Shown: positions 1,623 to 13,337 of the stretch, one piece after another | How the letters are laid out: every line of letters begins with the position of its first letter | Numbering within the stretch: the stretch's first letter is position 1 | Virus genome (UHGV): UHGV-0265340 | Origin: a virus | DNA length: 13,709 nucleotides | Direction: 5' to 3' (one strand) | Notes under the pieces: model-generated | What the model saw: only the letters and a program-made list of their open reading frames with translations | Databases searched by the model: none | Told to the model about the DNA's origin: nothing | Program-made: the position numbers and the translations under genes

Positions 1623-1650
1623 GATTCGCGTAACGCAACAGGAAACAAGC

Positions 1651-1929
1651 ATGATAAAAAGCTGGAAACACAAAGGACTTCAACGTTTCTTTGAAACAGG
1701 AAATGCATCAGGCATAAATCCCAATCACGTTAAACGCCTGAGAACGCGCCTTCAGGTAATAGATCAAGCTGAAATCATTGATGATATTAACCTTGCCGGG
1801 TACAGGCTGCACCAGTTGCAGGGGGACAGATCCGATACATGGTCTGTCACCGTCTCCGGTAACTGGAGAATCACATTCGAGTTTCGGAACGGCGATGCTT
1901 ATATTCTTAACTACGAGGATTACCACTAA
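1651..1929 (+). CDS. higB: HigB toxin (RelE/ParE-fold mRNA interferase, plasmid-killer family)
   Basis: 92-aa ORF from ATG 1651 with SD AGGAAACA (1640-1647); near-colinear with Rts1/Proteus HigB as recalled (MIKSxKHKGL ... GNWRITFxFxNGDAYILNYEDYH); stop TAA overlaps the next ATG (TAATG 1927-1931); toxin-first order typical of higBA. Confidence 0.9.
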   Translation: MIKSWKHKGLQRFFETGNASGINPNHVKRLRTRLQVIDQAEIIDDINLAGYRLHQLQGDRSDTWSVTVSGNWRITFEFRNGDAYILNYEDYH

Positions 1930-2234
1930 TGGCGATGTTTAACCCCCCTCATCCCGGAGAAATTATTGCTGATATTCTGGAAGATCAGAATATTGGAATC
2001 AGGGAACTGGCAAGAGCGCTTGATGTCGCGCCTTCCACTGTTCAGCGACTGGTTTCAGGTAATGCGACAATATCTCCTGAAATGGCTGTTCGTCTCGCTG
2101 CTGTCCTGGGTGGAACTCCGTCTTCATGGATTCGTCTCCAGACGGCATGGAGCCTCGAAAAAGCGGAAAGAGAAGTTGACGTATCTCATCTCTCAACAAA
2201 ATACCGCCCGGCAGAAATTTCGCCTCATGCTTAA
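1929..2234 (+). CDS. higA: HigA antitoxin (XRE-family HTH)
   Basis: 101-aa ORF translationally coupled to higB; HTH segment IRELARALDVAPSTVQRLVSG; overall similarity to HigA antidote proteins (PHPGEII...LED motif at the N-terminus). Confidence 0.9.
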   Translation: MAMFNPPHPGEIIADILEDQNIGIRELARALDVAPSTVQRLVSGNATISPEMAVRLAAVLGGTPSSWIRLQTAWSLEKAEREVDVSHLSTKYRPAEISPHA

Positions 2235-5201: not shown

Positions 5202-6278
5202 TTACCCCCTGAAACCCGGCGGAATTTCGGTGTCCGGTTCAGAAATGTGATTCACGCAACGCAGGCTGACTGCGCCAGCCTTCGGCAGCGACCACGGATT
5301 TTCGAAATTCCTGTTCGGGCCAAAAAACGTCGATGCCTGCTGAACAAATTCAGTTCCCGCTTTCCCGGTAGCCTCCAGGTATCTTGCGTAACGCCTCACG
5401 CCATCCAGCACGACATCCGGTGACACCCCTTCGCGTAATCTGGCCCTCCAGGCATTGAACGCGGATTTCTTCGGGTTTGACCCTGCCCGATGCGGATATT
5501 CACGCCAGACCCGTTCGAACACGTCAGGATAATCAACTCGTCCCGCAGACGGTCCCGGCATCGCCCGGGTTAACCCAATCGGCTTCCCGCTCATCGCGGA
5601 ATCGGCTTCAGGCTGCTGCGGTTGGCGTTGTTGCTCCGGTTCGACGATCAGCACCTGCTGCACACAACGCCCGGAATCTGCTTCCGGTGTCGTGCCAGCT
5701 GGTCCTGGACGTTCAGTCAGAACAGGACAAAAATCCCCCTGCGGGTCCGTGGCGATTTTTTCGCCATGGACCAGAAGGGTTTTATCCCTTTCCTGTTCTT
5801 GTTCCTGTTCTTGGCTTGAAAGGGGCTCTGAAGGGGCTTCAATTTTCCGACATGATTCACGTCTGACATCCAGGTGGAAATCATCCTTATATCTATCATA
5901 AAAGGATGATAAAAAAGGATTTTCCAGCAACACGGAATATTCATTTCTTACCCCAGCACAACGGTTATCGCCAGGTTTCAGCGATTCACCAACCTGCCAT
6001 GCTGCCATTTCATGCACCCATACAACCTCAGAATCATGGTCATAGCTGCAAAAACCAGCCTCGCAAGCCATTTGAAGCCCCTTAGAAGCCCCTTCAGGAT
6101 CAAGTCCGGTTTCGTGAGCAATGTACAAAACAGGCAGGTAATAAAGGCCCAGCATATTGGAATGAGGCGAGGTCATCATATACAACGCCACTACCATACA
6201 TTCCGGACCAGACTTCCTTAGTTTTCTCCCTGTTTCGCCTAACCAGAACTGAGGTGAAATTGTTGCGTAATTACGCAT
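5202..6278 (-). CDS. Phage replication protein with DnaT-like C-terminal domain
   Basis: 358-aa ORF with SD GAGGGG; C-terminus ends ...SEPDTEIPPGFRG, paralleling the C-terminus of primosomal protein DnaT as recalled; stop lies 7 bp before the dnaC-like start; contains low-complexity EQEQEQ and one copy of the upstream ~60-bp repeat. Confidence 0.85.
   Translation of the reverse strand: MRNYATISPQFWLGETGRKLRKSGPECMVVALYMMTSPHSNMLGLYYLPVLYIAHETGLDPEGASKGLQMACEAGFCSYDHDSEVVWVHEMAAWQVGESLKPGDNRCAGVRNEYSVLLENPFLSSFYDRYKDDFHLDVRRESCRKIEAPSEPLSSQEQEQEQERDKTLLVHGEKIATDPQGDFCPVLTERPGPAGTTPEADSGRCVQQVLIVEPEQQRQPQQPEADSAMSGKPIGLTRAMPGPSAGRVDYPDVFERVWREYPHRAGSNPKKSAFNAWRARLREGVSPDVVLDGVRRYARYLEATGKAGTEFVQQASTFFGPNRNFENPWSLPKAGAVSLRCVNHISEPDTEIPPGFRG
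5546..5640. repeat. Diverged third copy of the ~60-bp repeat, inside the replication gene
   Basis: CAGACGGTCCCGGCATCGCCCGGGTTAACCCAATCGGCTTC...AGGCTGCTGCGGTTGGCGTTGTTGCTCCGG matches the two copies at 6312-6472 apart from an internal 23-bp insertion. Confidence 0.8.
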
Positions 6279-6311
6279 AGTCCCCTCGCATACAAGATTT
6301 ACTCCATACCG

Positions 6312-6472
6312 CAGACGGTCCCGGTATCTCCCGGGTTAACCCAATCGGCTTCAGGCTGCTGCGGTTGGTGTGACTGCACATTGGTGTGACTGCACATCTT
6401 CACAGACGGTCCCGGTATCTCCGGGTTAACCCAATCGGCTTCAGGCTGCTGCGGTTGGTGTTGTTGCTGGCG
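6312..6472. repeat. Two direct copies of a ~59-bp repeat (91-bp period) plus an embedded 16-bp tandem duplication
   Basis: Copies at 6312-6370 and 6403-6460 (CAGACGGTCCCGGTATCTC(C)CGGGTTAACCCAATCGGCTTCAGGCTGCTGCGGTTGGTG); TTGGTGTGACTGCACA duplicated in tandem at 6365-6396; located between the cII-like gene and the replication gene. Confidence 0.85.
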
Positions 6473-6531
6473 AAATTCTTCCAGATGTGGCAGAATTATT
6501 CCCGTGTATTGCTCCATGCCCTGCCTGAATA

Positions 6532-7283: not shown

Positions 7284-8054
7284 ATGGTTAAAAAAGATGA
7301 ACTAAAAGAAGCGTTCTCAAAGAGACTACTACAGGCATTATTAGATGCAGGTGTGGGCGGACGCGGTCAGGCTAAGCGGATTCAGAATGCAATGAAACTG
7401 CGAGGCATTGATATCTCTGAACCGGGGATCTGGAAATGGCTTAATTCTGCATCAATTCCAGAAAAAACAAGTATTTTGGCACTTAGTGACTGGCTTTCCG
7501 TGAAGCCGGAGTGGTTGGAGTATGGCAGTAACGAGCCATCCGTAAAACAGCGACCTTCTATTCCAAACGAATCAGAATGGGGTTCCCTTGAAACTTGGGA
7601 CAGAAATACACAACTACGAGATGATGAAGTTGAGGTGCCATATCTGAAAGACATTGAGTTTGCATGCGGTGACGGAAGAGTTCATTGCGAAGATCATAAT
7701 GGTTTTAAATTACGCTTCTCAAAAGCAACCCTGCGCCGTGTCGGAGCTAACAGTGATGGTTCTGGTGTGCTTTGTTTTCCGGCTACTGGTGATAGCATGG
7801 AACCCGTGATACCAGATGGAACAACAATCGCAGTAGACACAAACAACAAACGTATTGTTGACGGCAAACTCTACGCCATCGCACAGCCTGGTGTCGGTGA
7901 TGAAAAACTGAAGCGTATAAAGCTATTGTACAGACGCCCCGGTGGAAAACTAATCATACGCAGTTATAACAGTGAAGAGTACCCTGACGAAGAAGCAGAT
8001 ACTCAAAGCGTGGAGATTATCGGAAAAGTTTTCTGGTATTCAGTTCTGCTTTAG
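7284..8054 (+). CDS. cI: CI-type prophage repressor (HTH + LexA-like S24 autopeptidase domain)
   Basis: 256-aa ORF; C-terminal S24 motifs (GDSMEP, downstream catalytic Lys region KLKRIK); N-terminal DNA-binding region; no SD, start directly downstream of the -10 (leaderless). Confidence 0.92.
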   Translation: MVKKDELKEAFSKRLLQALLDAGVGGRGQAKRIQNAMKLRGIDISEPGIWKWLNSASIPEKTSILALSDWLSVKPEWLEYGSNEPSVKQRPSIPNESEWGSLETWDRNTQLRDDEVEVPYLKDIEFACGDGRVHCEDHNGFKLRFSKATLRRVGANSDGSGVLCFPATGDSMEPVIPDGTTIAVDTNNKRIVDGKLYAIAQPGVGDEKLKRIKLLYRRPGGKLIIRSYNSEEYPDEEADTQSVEIIGKVFWYSVLL

Positions 8055-8450: not shown

Positions 8451-8723
8451 ATGTCCAGAAAGACAGAATTTAAAGGAACCGCAACTTCCCGCCGCAGAGC
8501 ACACCGGGCTGAGCTTCAGAGTCTGGAGGCATCAAGCGCTGATAAACTGCACCGCCCCACGCCTTCACGGGTGTACTTACAGTGCAAGCGCAAAGCCGCA
8601 ATGCGAGCTGAAGTAGTCACGATAACGACATTAACCAGAAAATATGAAGGCTCCACTTGTCTTCCAAACACTGCACTTTACGCAGCTGGCTATCGCAAAT
8701 CCGGAACAATAACAGCGAGGTGA
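8451..8723 (+). CDS. N: N-like transcription antiterminator (P22 gp24 / lambda N family)
   Basis: 90-aa ORF from ATG 8451 (SD GGAGAGA 8439-8445); arginine-rich motif TSRRRAHRAELQ resembling the lambda N ARM (QTRRRERRAEKQ); C-terminus LPNTALYAAGYRKSGTITAR parallels P22 gp24 as recalled; matching nut sites on both operons. Confidence 0.8.
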   Translation: MSRKTEFKGTATSRRRAHRAELQSLEASSADKLHRPTPSRVYLQCKRKAAMRAEVVTITTLTRKYEGSTCLPNTALYAAGYRKSGTITAR

Positions 8724-8726
8724 TTG

Positions 8727-9440
8727 ATGACCACACCTTCAGTTTTGCCGCAAAAATTATGGCGTCCGCTTGCAGAGATTAAAAACTTCGTTGAAAAAAT
8801 GCCTGATGGTGTTCGCCTTACGGAGGTTACAAAAAAAGTTAAGACGTTTGCCGAACTGTCAGGAAAAGAGAGAAACCAGCTCATAGATTTTATCGATAAA
8901 CGGGAAAGCATCATTGTATTTAAGGTCAGAAAAGAAGGTTCTGGTAACGGAGTAACCTTTTTCCGCCACAAAAAATATGGATATCCCAAACGGGAAGGAA
9001 ACGTCACAATCATTAAGGACCTTCAATCAAAATTATGTACCAGATGCGGGCAGACAAAATCAGTCAATGATTTTTATTCAGATGCCAGCAAGCGTGACGG
9101 GAGAGCCATTTATTGCAAGAAGTGCGAATCTGCAATGAAACGCTCACGCAGAGAATGCAACAAATTAATTCTGCAACAACAGGAACCTGAAATGAATAAC
9201 CTCAAAGCAGTTTCACCTTCACCAGAAATACTCAGAAAACAGGCTGAAGAATTGCTGAAAGCCGCCGAAATTGCGGAGAAAAAACGCCAGGAAGATGATG
9301 CATTCAACAAAAAACTTGCGCCCTTAAAACTTGAAATTCTTCAGGCCGCCGGAAAAATGCAGCTTAAACTGGACGAATTCATCGACTGTATGGATGAAAT
9401 GAATAAAGCAGTTCAGAAGCTTAAAGAGCTGACCGCCTGA
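8727..9440 (+). CDS. Hypothetical protein with CxxC...CxxC zinc ribbon and coiled-coil-like C-terminus
   Basis: 237-aa ORF from ATG 8727 (SD GAGG 8717-8720, 6-nt spacing; starts 4 bp after the N stop); CTRCG...CKKCE motif; K/E-rich helical C-terminus; AT-rich codon usage typical of phage cargo; no family recognised. Confidence 0.75.
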   Translation: MTTPSVLPQKLWRPLAEIKNFVEKMPDGVRLTEVTKKVKTFAELSGKERNQLIDFIDKRESIIVFKVRKEGSGNGVTFFRHKKYGYPKREGNVTIIKDLQSKLCTRCGQTKSVNDFYSDASKRDGRAIYCKKCESAMKRSRRECNKLILQQQEPEMNNLKAVSPSPEILRKQAEELLKAAEIAEKKRQEDDAFNKKLAPLKLEILQAAGKMQLKLDEFIDCMDEMNKAVQKLKELTA

Positions 9441-9471
9441 TATTAATAAATTGCAACTACCGGAGTTAACT

Positions 9472-9831
9472 ATGAACGAAACAGAACTGAAGCACATTAT
9501 CGCCCTGCTTCTGGAAGATGCCGGACAGGTTTATCGACTTAGCCCAAATTCCGCAACGCTGACACGCATCCAGATGGCAGAAAAAGCACTGAAACAGGAT
9601 AATGAAAACAGCGCATCCGAAGTTGATGCTAATGGTGAAAATGAAGTAATAGAAATAAACAGCAATATCAGCGACAGTTGCATCGCTTACAGCCACCAAA
9701 TAATTCGTGTAAGTGCAAGAATAATGGAAGTGATGGCAAGTGAGCTTGAAAAGAACAACATCAAGCCCACTGATTGTTGTTTAAGAACCGTAATGAACGT
9801 TATTTATTACTCGATGTTCCGAAGCCGCTAA
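9472..9831 (+). CDS. Hypothetical protein (119 aa)
   Basis: ATG 9472 with SD GGAG (9462-9465); acidic, AT-rich; no family recognised; 3' end overlaps the convergent ORF 9800-10009. Confidence 0.65.
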   Translation: MNETELKHIIALLLEDAGQVYRLSPNSATLTRIQMAEKALKQDNENSASEVDANGENEVIEINSNISDSCIAYSHQIIRVSARIMEVMASELEKNNIKPTDCCLRTVMNVIYYSMFRSR

Positions 9832-10009
9832 CAGCGTCGAGTTTTTCATTAAAAAATGATTCAAATGCATCGTAAAATACGGCAATAGCACCGCCCTTAT
9901 CTACCGCGGCAGGAACTGCCTTTTGAGGTATATCTTTCTCCCTGAATTGTGTGTTGTAGGTATCGACAGCCAGCCGCATCAGAAACATCACTTTTTCTTC
10001 TTGTGTCAT
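9800..10009 (-). CDS. Hypothetical small protein (69 aa), convergent with the upstream gene
   Basis: ATG at 10009 preceded on the minus strand by a strong SD (AAGGAGAG, about 7-nt spacing) and a structured GC-rich leader; overlaps the 3' end of 9472-9831 by 32 bp. Confidence 0.45.
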   Translation of the reverse strand: MTQEEKVMFLMRLAVDTYNTQFREKDIPQKAVPAAVDKGGAIAVFYDAFESFFNEKLDAVSGFGTSSNK

Positions 10010-10248
10010 AAATTCACTCTCCTTACGGGGTTTGTAGTTGAGGAGTTCTCCACGGGTGAGGTGGAGATCGTGCGCCGGACACGGGTAAGTTCCGGCACTC
10101 TCAGTTTACTGAACAGACATTACCCTGAAAGCCAGGGTACAACACGAAAGTGCACGGCGAAGACTCTTTCCCATTGAAGGCTTGTCGTTAGATTTCTTCG
10201 ACCGTGCGCTTCCGGTTGTGAATAACAACATTGCTGTGTGTAGCCCTT

Positions 10249-10290
10249 GGCGGACATCGGTTTGCCGATTGCTGATGTCCGCCCTTTTTA
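10249..10290 (+). terminator. Strong intrinsic terminator with no adjacent upstream CDS
   Basis: Stem GGCGGACATC (10249-10258) / GATGTCCGCC (10274-10283) with an inner ATCGG/CCGAT pairing, followed by CTTTTT (10284-10289); nearest upstream plus-strand CDS ends at 9831. Confidence 0.6.
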
Positions 10291-10465
10291 AAGTGAATTT
10301 TGTGATGCGGTGAATGCGGCTATGCGCACGCGGAACAGTTAAACCGACAGGATGTCACGGAAAGTCATCGTCCCCTGACCCGGCGTTAGTTGTTAACTGG
10401 TTAACGTCACCTGGAGGCACCAGGCACCGCATCAACAAAGTTCATTTGTGAAAATGGAGATAATT

Positions 10466-10687
10466 ATGATTGCTCATCACTTCGGAACTGATGAAATACC
10501 ACGTCAGTGCGTGACGCCTGGCGATTATGTTCTTCATGAAGGTCGGACATATATCGCTTCAGCAAACAATATTGAAAAGAGAAAACTCTATATTCGTAAC
10601 TTCACAACAAAAACATGCATTACCGACTGCATGATTAAAGTTTTCATCGGGCGCGATGGCTTACCCGTAAAAGCAGCGTCGTTGTGA
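10466..10687 (+). CDS. Hypothetical small protein (73 aa)
   Basis: ATG 10466 with SD GGAGA (10456-10460, 5-nt spacing); in-frame alternative ATG 10454 and GTG 10448; Cys-containing, AT-rich; no family recognised. Confidence 0.5.
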
Positions 10688-11264: not shown

Positions 11265-13337
11265 ATGAGCGCTGATAAACAGACTTTTGCACTACACTGC
11301 GAAGCAAAAAACGATAAAGTCAGAAAACGCCTTGGCATCAAAGGCGGTTTTTTCTGGACCGAGGCCAGAAAACTTTCTGTCGCAGTTTCCCGCTGCATTG
11401 CAGCCATGGACGATGCAGGCTACGACGAGGATGATTTCAAAAAACCCGTTCGCGTAAATTTCCCCGTCGTGAATGACCTTCCACCGGAAGGCGTGTTTGA
11501 TACTGAATTCTGCAACCGCTATGAAAAAGGCGGTAACGATGGCATCACCATGATGGCTATCCCCTTCGATGACAACATCAACGGTGAAGATGCCACAACT
11601 GCTGGCGATGACAACGATAACCTGGACGGAACTATTCCGGATGATGTGGAGAAAAGCGAATCCCCGGACAGCGACGATGACTGTTCTGAGTGTGAAATTC
11701 CCGTCGCCACTCTGAGCCTTACTCATCGCTTCCTTCACCTCTTCTTATTCAGCAAAGATGAAGATGGAAAATACCGGCATCATGCCACACCAGAACAACG
11801 CAATAACGTGATCCGTATGGAGATGGACACAGAGGACAGTTACCTTCAGAGCCTGCTTACTGCTGTGCGCGCCGCGCATCATGAACTGGATAAACTGACG
11901 AACTATCACCTTAGTCGCCTGGCTGAATCTGTAGGGAAAGCATTCCCCCACTCTGCAAATCATCGCATCAGCCCGGCTGAATTCGACAAGTTCATTTCCA
12001 CCTGGATGAAAACTGACTACCTTGATCAGGGCCTGCTGACAAAAGAATGGCAGAACGGAAATTATGTTTCAGGCATTACCCGTACGCCTTCCGGTGCTAA
12101 CGCTGGCGGCGGAAATATTACCGATCGTGGTGAAGGATTCAAACATGATAAGACATCACTCGCACGAGATGTAGCCACCGGCGTTCTGGCCCGTTCAATG
12201 GATGTGGATATTTATAACCTGCACCCAGCACACGCAAAACGCGTTGAAGAAATCGTGTCAGAGAATAAGCCGCCCTTTTCTGTTTTTCGCGACAAATTTA
12301 TCGCCATGCCCGGTGGGCTGGATTATTCCCGCGCCATTGTGGTGGCTTCCGTGAAAGAAGCACCAATCGGCATTGAGGCCATCCCGGCACGCGTGACTGA
12401 ATATCTCAACAAAGTGTTGACCGAAACCGATCACGCTAACCCGGATCCGGAAATCGTGGAAATTGCCTGCGGTCGCTCATCAGCACCGATGCCGCAGCGC
12501 GGAACAGCAGAAGGAAAACATGGCGATGAAGAAAAGCAACAAGCATCGGACACAATGGCTAATGAACAGGCAGCGCCTGAATCAGTGGAAGAAATTCCAG
12601 TTAAACATAATGAGGACACGCAATCACTGGAAAATGTCTCATCTGTAGAAACGAAATACCAGGAACTGAGGGAGGAACTCAATAAAGCCAGGGAAAACAT
12701 CCCCCCAAAAAATCCAGTCGATGCCGACAAATTACTGGCTGCCTCGCGTGGAGAATTCGTTGAAGGCATCAGTAACCCTGCTGATCCGAAGTGGGTGAAG
12801 GGGATCCAGACTCGCGACACTGAGGACCAGAATCAGTCCAAAGTGGAACAAATTGCCCCAGAAGCGGGACAAAACAGCCCGGATACGCAACAAAACGGGC
12901 CAGAAGAGCAACAGCCAGGGCCAGTAGCGCAACCGGAGCTGGAAAAAAACTGCCGCGTCTGTGGTCAGACTGGCGGGGGTAACTGCCCTGACTGTAGTGC
13001 GGTAATGGGCGATAGCACTTACACAGAAACTTTTGGAGAAAATGACGCCGCTGATGGAGAAGACTCAGCACAAACTGAGGAGAAGATCATTCAGGAAAAC
13101 TCTGTTGATGCCGCTCAGGAGGGCGAAACCGTTGTTCAGAACGAGCCAGGCAGTGATACGTCCGGCGATGACGCCAATTCTGAGCCAGTAACTCTCGACT
13201 GGAAAAGACAGCTCGTGATTGCCGCCGTCTATGGTTTGTGCGCCAACCCCGCATGTATAGCCACAGCGCCAGCAATCCCTGATATCGCCATCATGATTGC
13301 CAACAGGCTTGAAAATTTCGGAGGTGATAAATCATGA
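11265..13337 (+). CDS. Large acidic protein resembling the non-catalytic N-terminal region of RecE (exonuclease VIII) family prophage proteins; nuclease domain apparently absent
   Basis: 690-aa ORF from ATG 11265 (GAGG 11251-11254); D/E-rich low-complexity stretches; CRVCGQ...CPDC motif; segments such as NFPVVNDLP and [16 protein letters not shown]...[16 protein letters not shown]...[10 protein letters not shown]...[12 protein letters not shown] match my recollection of the Rac RecE N-terminal region (unverified); stop overlaps the gam ATG (ATGA 13334-13337). Confidence 0.8.

Follow-up and report, generated by a model that had tools for sequence, protein, structure and literature searches.

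A convergent cassette of a small acidic gene and its neighbour's C-terminal domain in the early-left region of a lambdoid prophage

Results

The UHGV virus genome UHGV-0265340 was analysed as one stretch of 13,709 nucleotides (nt), hereafter called the window, which is the early region of a lambdoid prophage with its plus strand in the direction of the promoter pL. Behind an N-type antiterminator gene lie p237 and p119 on the plus strand and p69 on the minus strand, each designated by the number of amino acids (aa) that it encodes, and the last 32 nt of p69 overlap the 3′ end of p119. A first-pass annotation, made by a model from the sequence alone, had described these open reading frames (ORFs) as an uncharacterised trio of cargo genes. 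Their coordinates, strands and overlap were all present as it had described them. The idea that the trio forms one unit had to be given up because p237 and the pair are each found without the other. On comparative sequence evidence, the unit is instead a mobile two-gene cassette that consists of p69 and the C-terminal ~45 aa of its convergent partner, here p119 (Table 1).

The pattern of substitutions indicates that p69 is a real gene. The Shine-Dalgarno (SD) sequence that had been called strong is in place, and a purine-rich SD upstream of the start is retained in the allele types aligned or listed. The first-pass annotation had proposed to look for the frame in homologues, where it indeed stays open in divergent alleles. 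In three alleles whose synonymous sites differ by 49–56%, it is the sole open one of six frames, and the ratio of nonsynonymous to synonymous substitution (omega) among them is 0.35–0.45. Among about 14 allele types, nonsynonymous differences (pN) are well below synonymous ones (pS). A hidden Markov model scan of 1.84 billion representative proteins placed the p69 family in only 15 clusters at 50% identity, with members of 37–94 aa, and the distant ones retain MT-x-EEKVMFLMRLAV...Y-x-K-x-E-x-L-x-KKL. Few relatives exist of either p119 or p69. The closest record to the window is an E. coli chromosome with 99.8% identity, in which the Prokaryotic Genome Annotation Pipeline annotates p237, p119 and p69; owing to a premature stop, p69 has 63 aa there. 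Neither p69 (grand average of hydropathy −0.24) nor p119 is hydrophobic. The motifs YLMRL and AVFY of p69 resemble those of Hha/YmoA, a candidate that was rejected at an hhalign probability of 2% over 9 aligned columns and without any Pfam match in 13 members of the p69 family.

In species-representative genomes a single relative of p69 was confirmed, a partnerless copy in Buttiauxella. This lone 59-aa homologue of Buttiauxella sp. B2 (L015, 4001–4180) has a promoter-like motif, lacks a partner gene and adjoins insertion sequence fragments and ordinary chromosomal genes. It is probably a prophage remnant.

The partner of p69 is constant only at its end. p119, correctly described as acidic (isoelectric point, pI, 5.0), has a helical hairpin at either end with an acidic disordered linker in between, and its first 46 aa match further PHROGs. 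The AlphaFold2 (AF2) model of p119 has a predicted local distance difference test score (pLDDT) of 58 overall and 71–78 for aa 71–110, too poor for a fold search; for the C-terminal domain a helical hairpin is predicted. Proteins of 64, 71, 118, 119, 121, 128, 130, 158, 171 and 201 aa share the C-terminal motif, with differing N-terminal parts and a constant end of ~45 aa. The motif reads L-x-I-S-S-x-x-L-x-x-x-K-x-x-L-(5)-K-P-T-P-x-x-L-R-x-V-M-x-I-I-x-x-S-L-P and is less strictly kept in the window type. Purifying selection acts on the domain (pN < pS). In the middle of p119 (aa ~30–57; window 9520–9640), at least three recombinant forms were seen among otherwise near-identical cassettes (loci L017–L044), which implies frequent recombination within the gene, upstream of the conserved C-terminal domain.

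Divergent types of the cassette were found in Escherichia, Edwardsiella and uncultured phages. Every intact p69 that was read with its neighbour faces a gene ending in the motif, with a 3′ overlap of 23–33 nt; the exceptions to this pairing are decayed copies and the Buttiauxella gene. The convergent overlap, which the first-pass annotation had singled out, is kept in every intact pair examined. Its suggestion that p69 is coupled to the 119-aa protein stands for the C-terminal ~45 aa and fails for the rest of p119. Comparison of the window with a second locus, L008, illustrates this point. The DNA of the two is mostly 90–100% identical except in a patch at ~9640–9960, where identity is 48–80% in most of it and which covers exactly the partner C-terminus and the body of p69. 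A second, short dip lies in the stem-loop of the neighbouring small RNA (sRNA).

The cassette was seen in three contexts, namely after p237, after ydfABC in Qin-type prophages (without p237), and, in the Edwardsiella phage EPP-1 and in L110 and L121, as the unit that comes first behind cI, a terminator and pL. The pair of p119/p69 type in EPP-1 likewise occurs without p237. In EPP-1 and L121, the terminator that follows cI and a strong promoter immediately precede the partner gene, so that pL and p69 face each other. Among 5,426 complete E. coli genomes, ~81 match the window-type cassette, including O104:H4, with some matching the p119 part only, and 8 carry the Qin-type cassette. The copy in the O104:H4 outbreak lineage is part of a prophage and, in 2011C-3493, is ~96% identical. 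The Shiga toxin (Stx) phage phiSTEC1589-Stx1c matches the region at 96.6% identity and carries the cassette as well. In 29 of the 32 close IMG/VR loci (p69 at least 96% identical, sequence reaching that far), p237, p119 and p69 occur together at high identity. Either gene can decay by itself. The Stx phages POCJ13 and 75/02 keep the partner and carry a p69 whose 5′ part is deleted, and the decaying prophage L063 has an intact p69, a deleted p237 and a frameshifted p119. K-12 Qin has lost both cassette genes. In the IMG/VR locus L017 (about 3549), a dicB-like gene (67% identity) follows a window-type cassette at the place where other window-type loci have kil, so that the cassette combines with either division inhibitor. 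It was also found where neither kil nor dicB was detected.

An 11-bp hairpin, seen in minimum free energy folds, is embedded in the partner gene in the sense of the p69 transcript. Covariation was assessed in a gap-free alignment of 14 types, with 500 shuffles and with a control in which the pairing partner was slid. Of the hairpin cells 85.7% pair, compared with 77% in shuffles (0/500 reach the observed value) and 29–56% with the partner slid, and compensatory changes were found at four pairs. Because of G-U pairs the structure forms better on the p69 strand (132 paired cells versus 112 on the opposite strand), and this holds in every sequence. In the types with a 64-aa partner, UUUU(U)AAAA follows the hairpin as in an intrinsic terminator. 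The hairpin is a candidate for the 3′ end or terminator of the p69 transcript. A conserved 3′ overlap, together with a structured element of the p69 transcript within the partner gene, makes some form of coupling plausible.

The region upstream of p69 is conserved in L008, in Qin-type loci, in K-12 Qin and partly in Rac. It may be either the leader and promoter of p69 or a stretch in which the pL transcript is processed ahead of the sRNA. A consensus fold of the leader in the E. coli types was uninformative because the sequences vary too little. All types from outside E. coli have TGGTAT(C/T)(T/C)T, which resembles an extended −10 element, ~35 nt before the p69 ATG.

Table 1. Features of the cassette and its surroundings in the window (strand +, pL direction).
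Feature	Position	Strand	Remarks
p69	9800-10009	-	69 aa, acidic, convergent to the pL operon; phrog_2605 at 2.8e-44
p69 Shine-Dalgarno sequence AAGGAG	10019-10024	-	nine bases before ATG
Partner C-terminal domain (p119 aa 68-119)	9673-9831	+	always accompanies p69 (exceptions in text)
p119	9472-9831	+	119 aa, pI 5.0; phrog_2982 at 3.5e-76
Hairpin, p69-sense strand	9739-9771	-	28-60 nt past p69 stop, within p119 codons S-E-L-E-K-N-N-I-K-P-T
Conserved region upstream of p69	10030-10234	-	two hairpins at 10048-10098
p237	8727-9440	+	237 aa, basic, early-left; phrog_2539 family, PHROG E 7e-131
p237 winged-helix domain	8751-8969	+	aa 9-81, AF2 model
p237 CxxC...CxxC zinc ribbon	9021-9128	+	aa ~99-134, optional insertion in family
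p237 long C-terminal helix	9222-9434	+	aa 166-236, best-conserved part of family
DicF/KilS-like small RNA	10235-10284	+	downstream boundary of slot
N-type antiterminator gene	8451-8723	+	Pfam N_peptide 1.2e-25; context, outside the finding
S24-type repressor gene	7284-8054	+	window gene

p237 (pI 9.5) is a different kind of gene. It starts with ATG 3 nt past the N stop, and its SD (GAGGTG) sits in the last codons of N; p237 is read as an early gene transcribed from pL and probably translationally coupled to N. It has 67 homologues in Enterobacterales. Members of the family occur in early-left operons of prophages from several genera of this order without the p119/p69 pair. In four of seven contexts read, the gene starts 2–8 nt past N or an N-sized gene, at a distance of 2–4 nt from the N stop in the window, L070 and L072, and of 8 nt in L061/L062, where the N-sized gene has no N_peptide match. 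In the other contexts it lies deeper in the early-left operon, and one short form is near a Q-type antiterminator. Its place close behind N or within the early-left operon argues for an early gene often tied to N and not for cargo. Neither p237 nor p119 showed signs of the independence that their description as cargo had implied.

The AF2 model of p237 (mean pLDDT 80.7) comprises a winged helix, a ribbon, a helix, a disordered linker (aa 145–161) and the long C-terminal helix. With three helices and a beta-hairpin, the N-terminal domain has winged-helix topology. The CxxC...CxxC ribbon (CTRC at aa 104, CKKC at aa 130) and the charged tail (38% K/E/R/D in the last 77 aa) noticed in the first-pass annotation are both present. 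The ribbon is an optional insertion in the family, restricted to family forms of ~243–252 aa, missing from those of ~172–205 aa and absent from about 40 of 66 aligned members. The family alignment conserves both the N-terminal domain and the C-terminal helical region; 16 of 17 invariant columns fall into the latter, and the helix matches phrog_2565 at 1.4e-19. Two relatives have an N-terminal AlpA helix-turn-helix. The predicted combination of winged helix, flexible linker and long helix suggests an oligomeric nucleic-acid-binding or adaptor protein.

Several assignments of p237 were considered and rejected. A fold search in BFVD gave ribbon-level matches only. The ribbon superposes on phage HNH-type ribbons with a root-mean-square deviation of ~1 Å over ~50 aa and matches the PHROGs of phage HNH/endonuclease VII proteins and of Lar-like proteins at 1e-9 to 2.6e-6. 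The matches to HNH/endonuclease VII proteins cover only aa ~96–189, i.e. the ribbon and the next helix. Unlike those proteins, p237 has no nuclease domain after its ribbon, where the AF2 model contains helix only, and no Pfam HNH or Endonuclease_7 model matches. Ral (PF11058) and Lar were discarded for lack of a Pfam match; the Lar-like phrog_5558 is matched only by the optional ribbon (2.5e-9), and nuclease-associated ribbons match equally well or better.

In line with the first-pass annotation, all three proteins fall outside characterised families. Pfam, NCBIfam and PADLOC, including their models of type II toxin-antitoxin and known defence systems, returned no match apart from a weak and non-significant one of p119 to JetB (E 0.013). 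Sequence searches of the PDB with family profiles gave noise only (E about 0.2 or worse), and the full-length PHROG matches have no assigned function. The proposed check for homology to Ral, SieB or Ea-type proteins was negative for all three. Literature searches on the p237, p119 and p69 genes and on dicBF antisense returned nothing on these genes.

On the minus strand, the window carries cro/cII-type genes and O/DnaC-type replication genes. Beyond the p69 slot lie a DicF/KilS-like sRNA, a KilR-type gene (kil), a 128-aa gene (p128), a RecE N-terminal protein and gam. The low GC content of the trio region, which had been described as marked, is real (0.414 versus 0.479 in the window, 0.513 in N and 0.536 in the replication genes). 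The difference is modest, as kil (0.423), p128 (0.390) and cI (0.447) are comparably AT-rich.

The sRNA ends in a terminator-like GC hairpin with a T-run (about 10249–10289), which was read from the sequence and not listed by the terminator scan. Its score with the Rfam DicF model (RF00039) is 29.5 bits, below the gathering score of 48. The syntenic elements of L008 (45.9 bits) and Rac (39.1 bits, annotated as kilS) are also sub-threshold. The window element is best called DicF/KilS-like. KilS is a northern-verified sRNA (PMC8175672). The leader of kil (window 10286–10480, plus strand) is STnc100-like, at 31 bits versus a threshold of 47, and sRNA and leader together have syntenic counterparts in kilS-kilR (Rac) and dicF-dicB (Qin). 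The same sRNA element (window 10182–10293, plus strand) contains AUUGCUGUGUGUAG, which agrees at 14/14 positions with the 3′ part of the RprA consensus in Rfam. The RprA model itself scores 29.7 bits versus 70 (E 0.12). Most of the motif (AUUGCUGUGUGU) recurs in the kilS region of Rac, which may point to a seed common to both or to mimicry. In L008 the loop of the element's stem departs from that of the window (75% identity across 10241–10300).

Discussion

In lambda the slot of the cassette is occupied by sieB and ral, and in Rac and a Providencia prophage (L059) by sieB, which agrees with the first-pass description of this position as a home of ral- and sieB-type genes. In lambda (after N), in Rac (before kilS-kilR) and in L059, sieB is convergent to the pL operon. 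p69 shares with sieB of lambda, Rac and P22 a slot in the early-left operon, bounded by N or the first early genes on one side and by kil on the other, as well as the convergent orientation, with the 3′ end of the preceding gene abutted or overlapped. sieB is expressed from the prophage (PMC10883804), and in P22 the control of SieB involves the antisense RNA sas and Esc, an antagonist made by the phage (PMC12197685, PMC7067206). Esc is encoded within sieB, whereas the candidate partner here is a separate convergent gene. As a protein p69 is not SieB. None of p69, p119 and p237 matches PF14163 at E ≤ 0.1, and BLASTP of p69 against Rac SieB gave no alignment at E ≤ 100. Rac SieB has 162 aa, within the ~160–190 aa of its family, as opposed to an acidic, non-hydrophobic p69 of 69 aa. 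In position, after N or the first early-left genes and convergent to pL, p69 is where a SieB would be, and the cassette lies at the head of the early-left operon or close to it. p69 and sieB are alike only in position and logic.

p69 also resembles the morons of prophages in its own strong SD, its orientation opposite to the operon, the candidate 3′ hairpin, the low GC content and, in the types from outside E. coli, a promoter-like motif. Unlike in morons, its candidate terminator lies inside a neighbouring coding sequence, and p69 is tied to the C-terminal domain encoded there, while p237 and p119 show no independent transcription signals. A further comparison concerns the dicBF and kilS-kilR modules of Qin and Rac, since a DicF/KilS-type sRNA and kil or dicB directly follow the cassette. 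In Rac, sieB stands in its place. K-12 Qin has kept the leader upstream of the cassette, yet not the cassette genes.

Taken together, we tentatively favour a reading in which the region consists of two independent things, namely p237 as an early gene and a convergent cassette whose p69 is expressed in the lysogen and coupled to an early-lytic partner. The structural statements on the cassette are well supported, and from them we infer the functional model of p69. p69 would be transcribed as a separate unit while the prophage is repressed, and its transcript would end at the embedded hairpin, giving an antisense overlap of ~100 nt with the partner mRNA. Upon induction, N-modified transcription from pL would traverse the whole p69 gene while the partner protein is being made. 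p69 would then be shut off by polymerase collision and RNA duplex formation, and the helical-hairpin domain of the partner might bind or counteract the helical p69 protein. Such a logic would resemble the way in which P22 escapes from its own SieB. Exclusion of other phages is our leading guess for the role of p69 in the lysogen, by analogy from position alone.

A more specific proposal, about which we are rather doubtful, is that the partner C-terminal domain and p69 form an undescribed self/non-self module of prophages. The lysogen would make p69 from a promoter facing pL, directed against incoming phages or leaky early-left expression, and pL would yield an allele-matched antagonist of p69 as its first product or one of its early ones. 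Convergence of the transcripts, together with a p69 terminator inside the antagonist coding sequence, would make the expression of p69 and that of its antagonist exclude each other.

Several observations weigh against the reading that we favour. No promoter of p69 was identified in the window type, where a scan of the minus strand (10010–10460) found nothing matching at 9/12 or better. The window sequence that aligns with the extended −10 motif is poor, and hand-picked candidates were weak. A U-run is missing after the hairpin in the window type, and the Edwardsiella types have no good hairpin (6/11 pairs). The inducible Stx phages POCJ13 and 75/02, with partner and without p69, imply that p69 is dispensable for the phage. 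Since partner and p69 are ~150 bp apart, their co-variation could be simple linkage. p69 is a small soluble protein without local alignment to, and unlike, the 162-aa SieB of Rac. With regard to p237, the winged-helix fold also serves protein-protein contacts, e.g. in RPA32C and the cullin WHB domain.

Coupling could exist at the level of RNA or transcription only. p69 would then be an independent accessory gene expressed in the lysogen whose terminator happens to lie in its neighbour, and the partner C-terminus would travel with p69 because it carries the 3′ untranslated region of p69, not because of protein contact. The location of the hairpin fits this explanation, as it falls into the best-conserved DNA patch of the partner gene (9725–9771, 83% identity to the Qin type) and the rest of the patch gave no separate alignment to that type. 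So do the G-U pairs, which fit the p69 strand only, and the free exchange of partner bodies upstream of the motif. The protein motif, however, begins ~10 codons upstream of the hairpin and runs to the stop codon under purifying selection. Moreover, the stand-alone 64-aa partner is little more than the motif, and in the Edwardsiella types the motif persists where no clear hairpin is present. We regard a pure RNA relationship as somewhat unlikely.

The two genes might also be unrelated neighbours, the overlap being due to genome compaction and the divergent patch to a recombination block without function. The overlapping tails are indeed the least conserved parts of both proteins, p69 lacks six residues in the closest genome, and the genes are too close for an absence of recombinants to inform. 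Against mere neighbourhood stands the recurrence of the same pairing and overlap in ~14 allele types with saturated synonymous sites, with varied partner lengths, unrelated N-terminal bodies and three operon contexts. As the hairpin shows compensatory changes in addition, chance proximity appears quite unlikely to us. A toxin-antitoxin-like or abortive-infection pair, made of a harmful small helical protein and a second one that neutralises it, is very improbable. Two small co-varying proteins that always go together in the immunity region of a prophage, where such modules are common, invite this comparison. Apart from the non-significant JetB match there is no Pfam, NCBIfam or PADLOC model for them, the genes are convergent rather than in an operon, and neither product is hydrophobic. 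Each gene also remains intact where the other is destroyed, the partner in POCJ13 and 75/02 and p69 in L063. Finally, the original reading of the trio as one cargo unit inserted after N is hardly credible, as the joint occurrence in close IMG/VR loci and the shared low GC content are outweighed by p237 homologues in other genera without the pair, by pairs without p237 and by the mosaic boundary between the window and L008, which runs inside p119 and not around the trio.

Genes acting in the lysogen are known to reside in the sieB slot of lambdoid prophages. A second, unrelated occupant in the same orientation would offer a compact and testable case of control by convergent transcription, and the cassette is a candidate for a new exclusion or self-immunity pair. 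It occurs in Stx-converting phages and in the O104:H4 prophage, immediately upstream of the division inhibitors DicF/KilS, Kil or DicB. Even without a phenotype the annotation is tidied, with p237 as N-associated, its ribbon as accessory, and the partner C-terminus plus p69 as the unit.

Additional observations

Three further features of the window lie apart from the cassette. A segment of 41–49 nt within the O-like replication gene has two further copies, 90 nt apart, in a small ORF (6299–6517) between cII and O. The segments are at window 5543–5628 and 6309–6461, and a 16-nt tandem duplication is found at 6365–6396. They may represent iteron-like or origin repeats; alternatively, part of the O gene may have been duplicated.

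In the rightward region beyond the replication genes, a small ORF (within 1555–1929) is followed on the plus strand by a gene annotated as a HigA-family antitoxin (1929–2234). The two (window 1650–2234) may be an addiction module of the HigBA type.

The RecE-family protein (690 aa; window 11265–13337, plus strand) matches the N-terminal Exonuc_VIII region only and shows no trace of the nuclease part at the C-terminus. Its gene is directly upstream of a complete gam-bet-exo set, so that the nuclease function appears to be provided by a lambda-type Exo.

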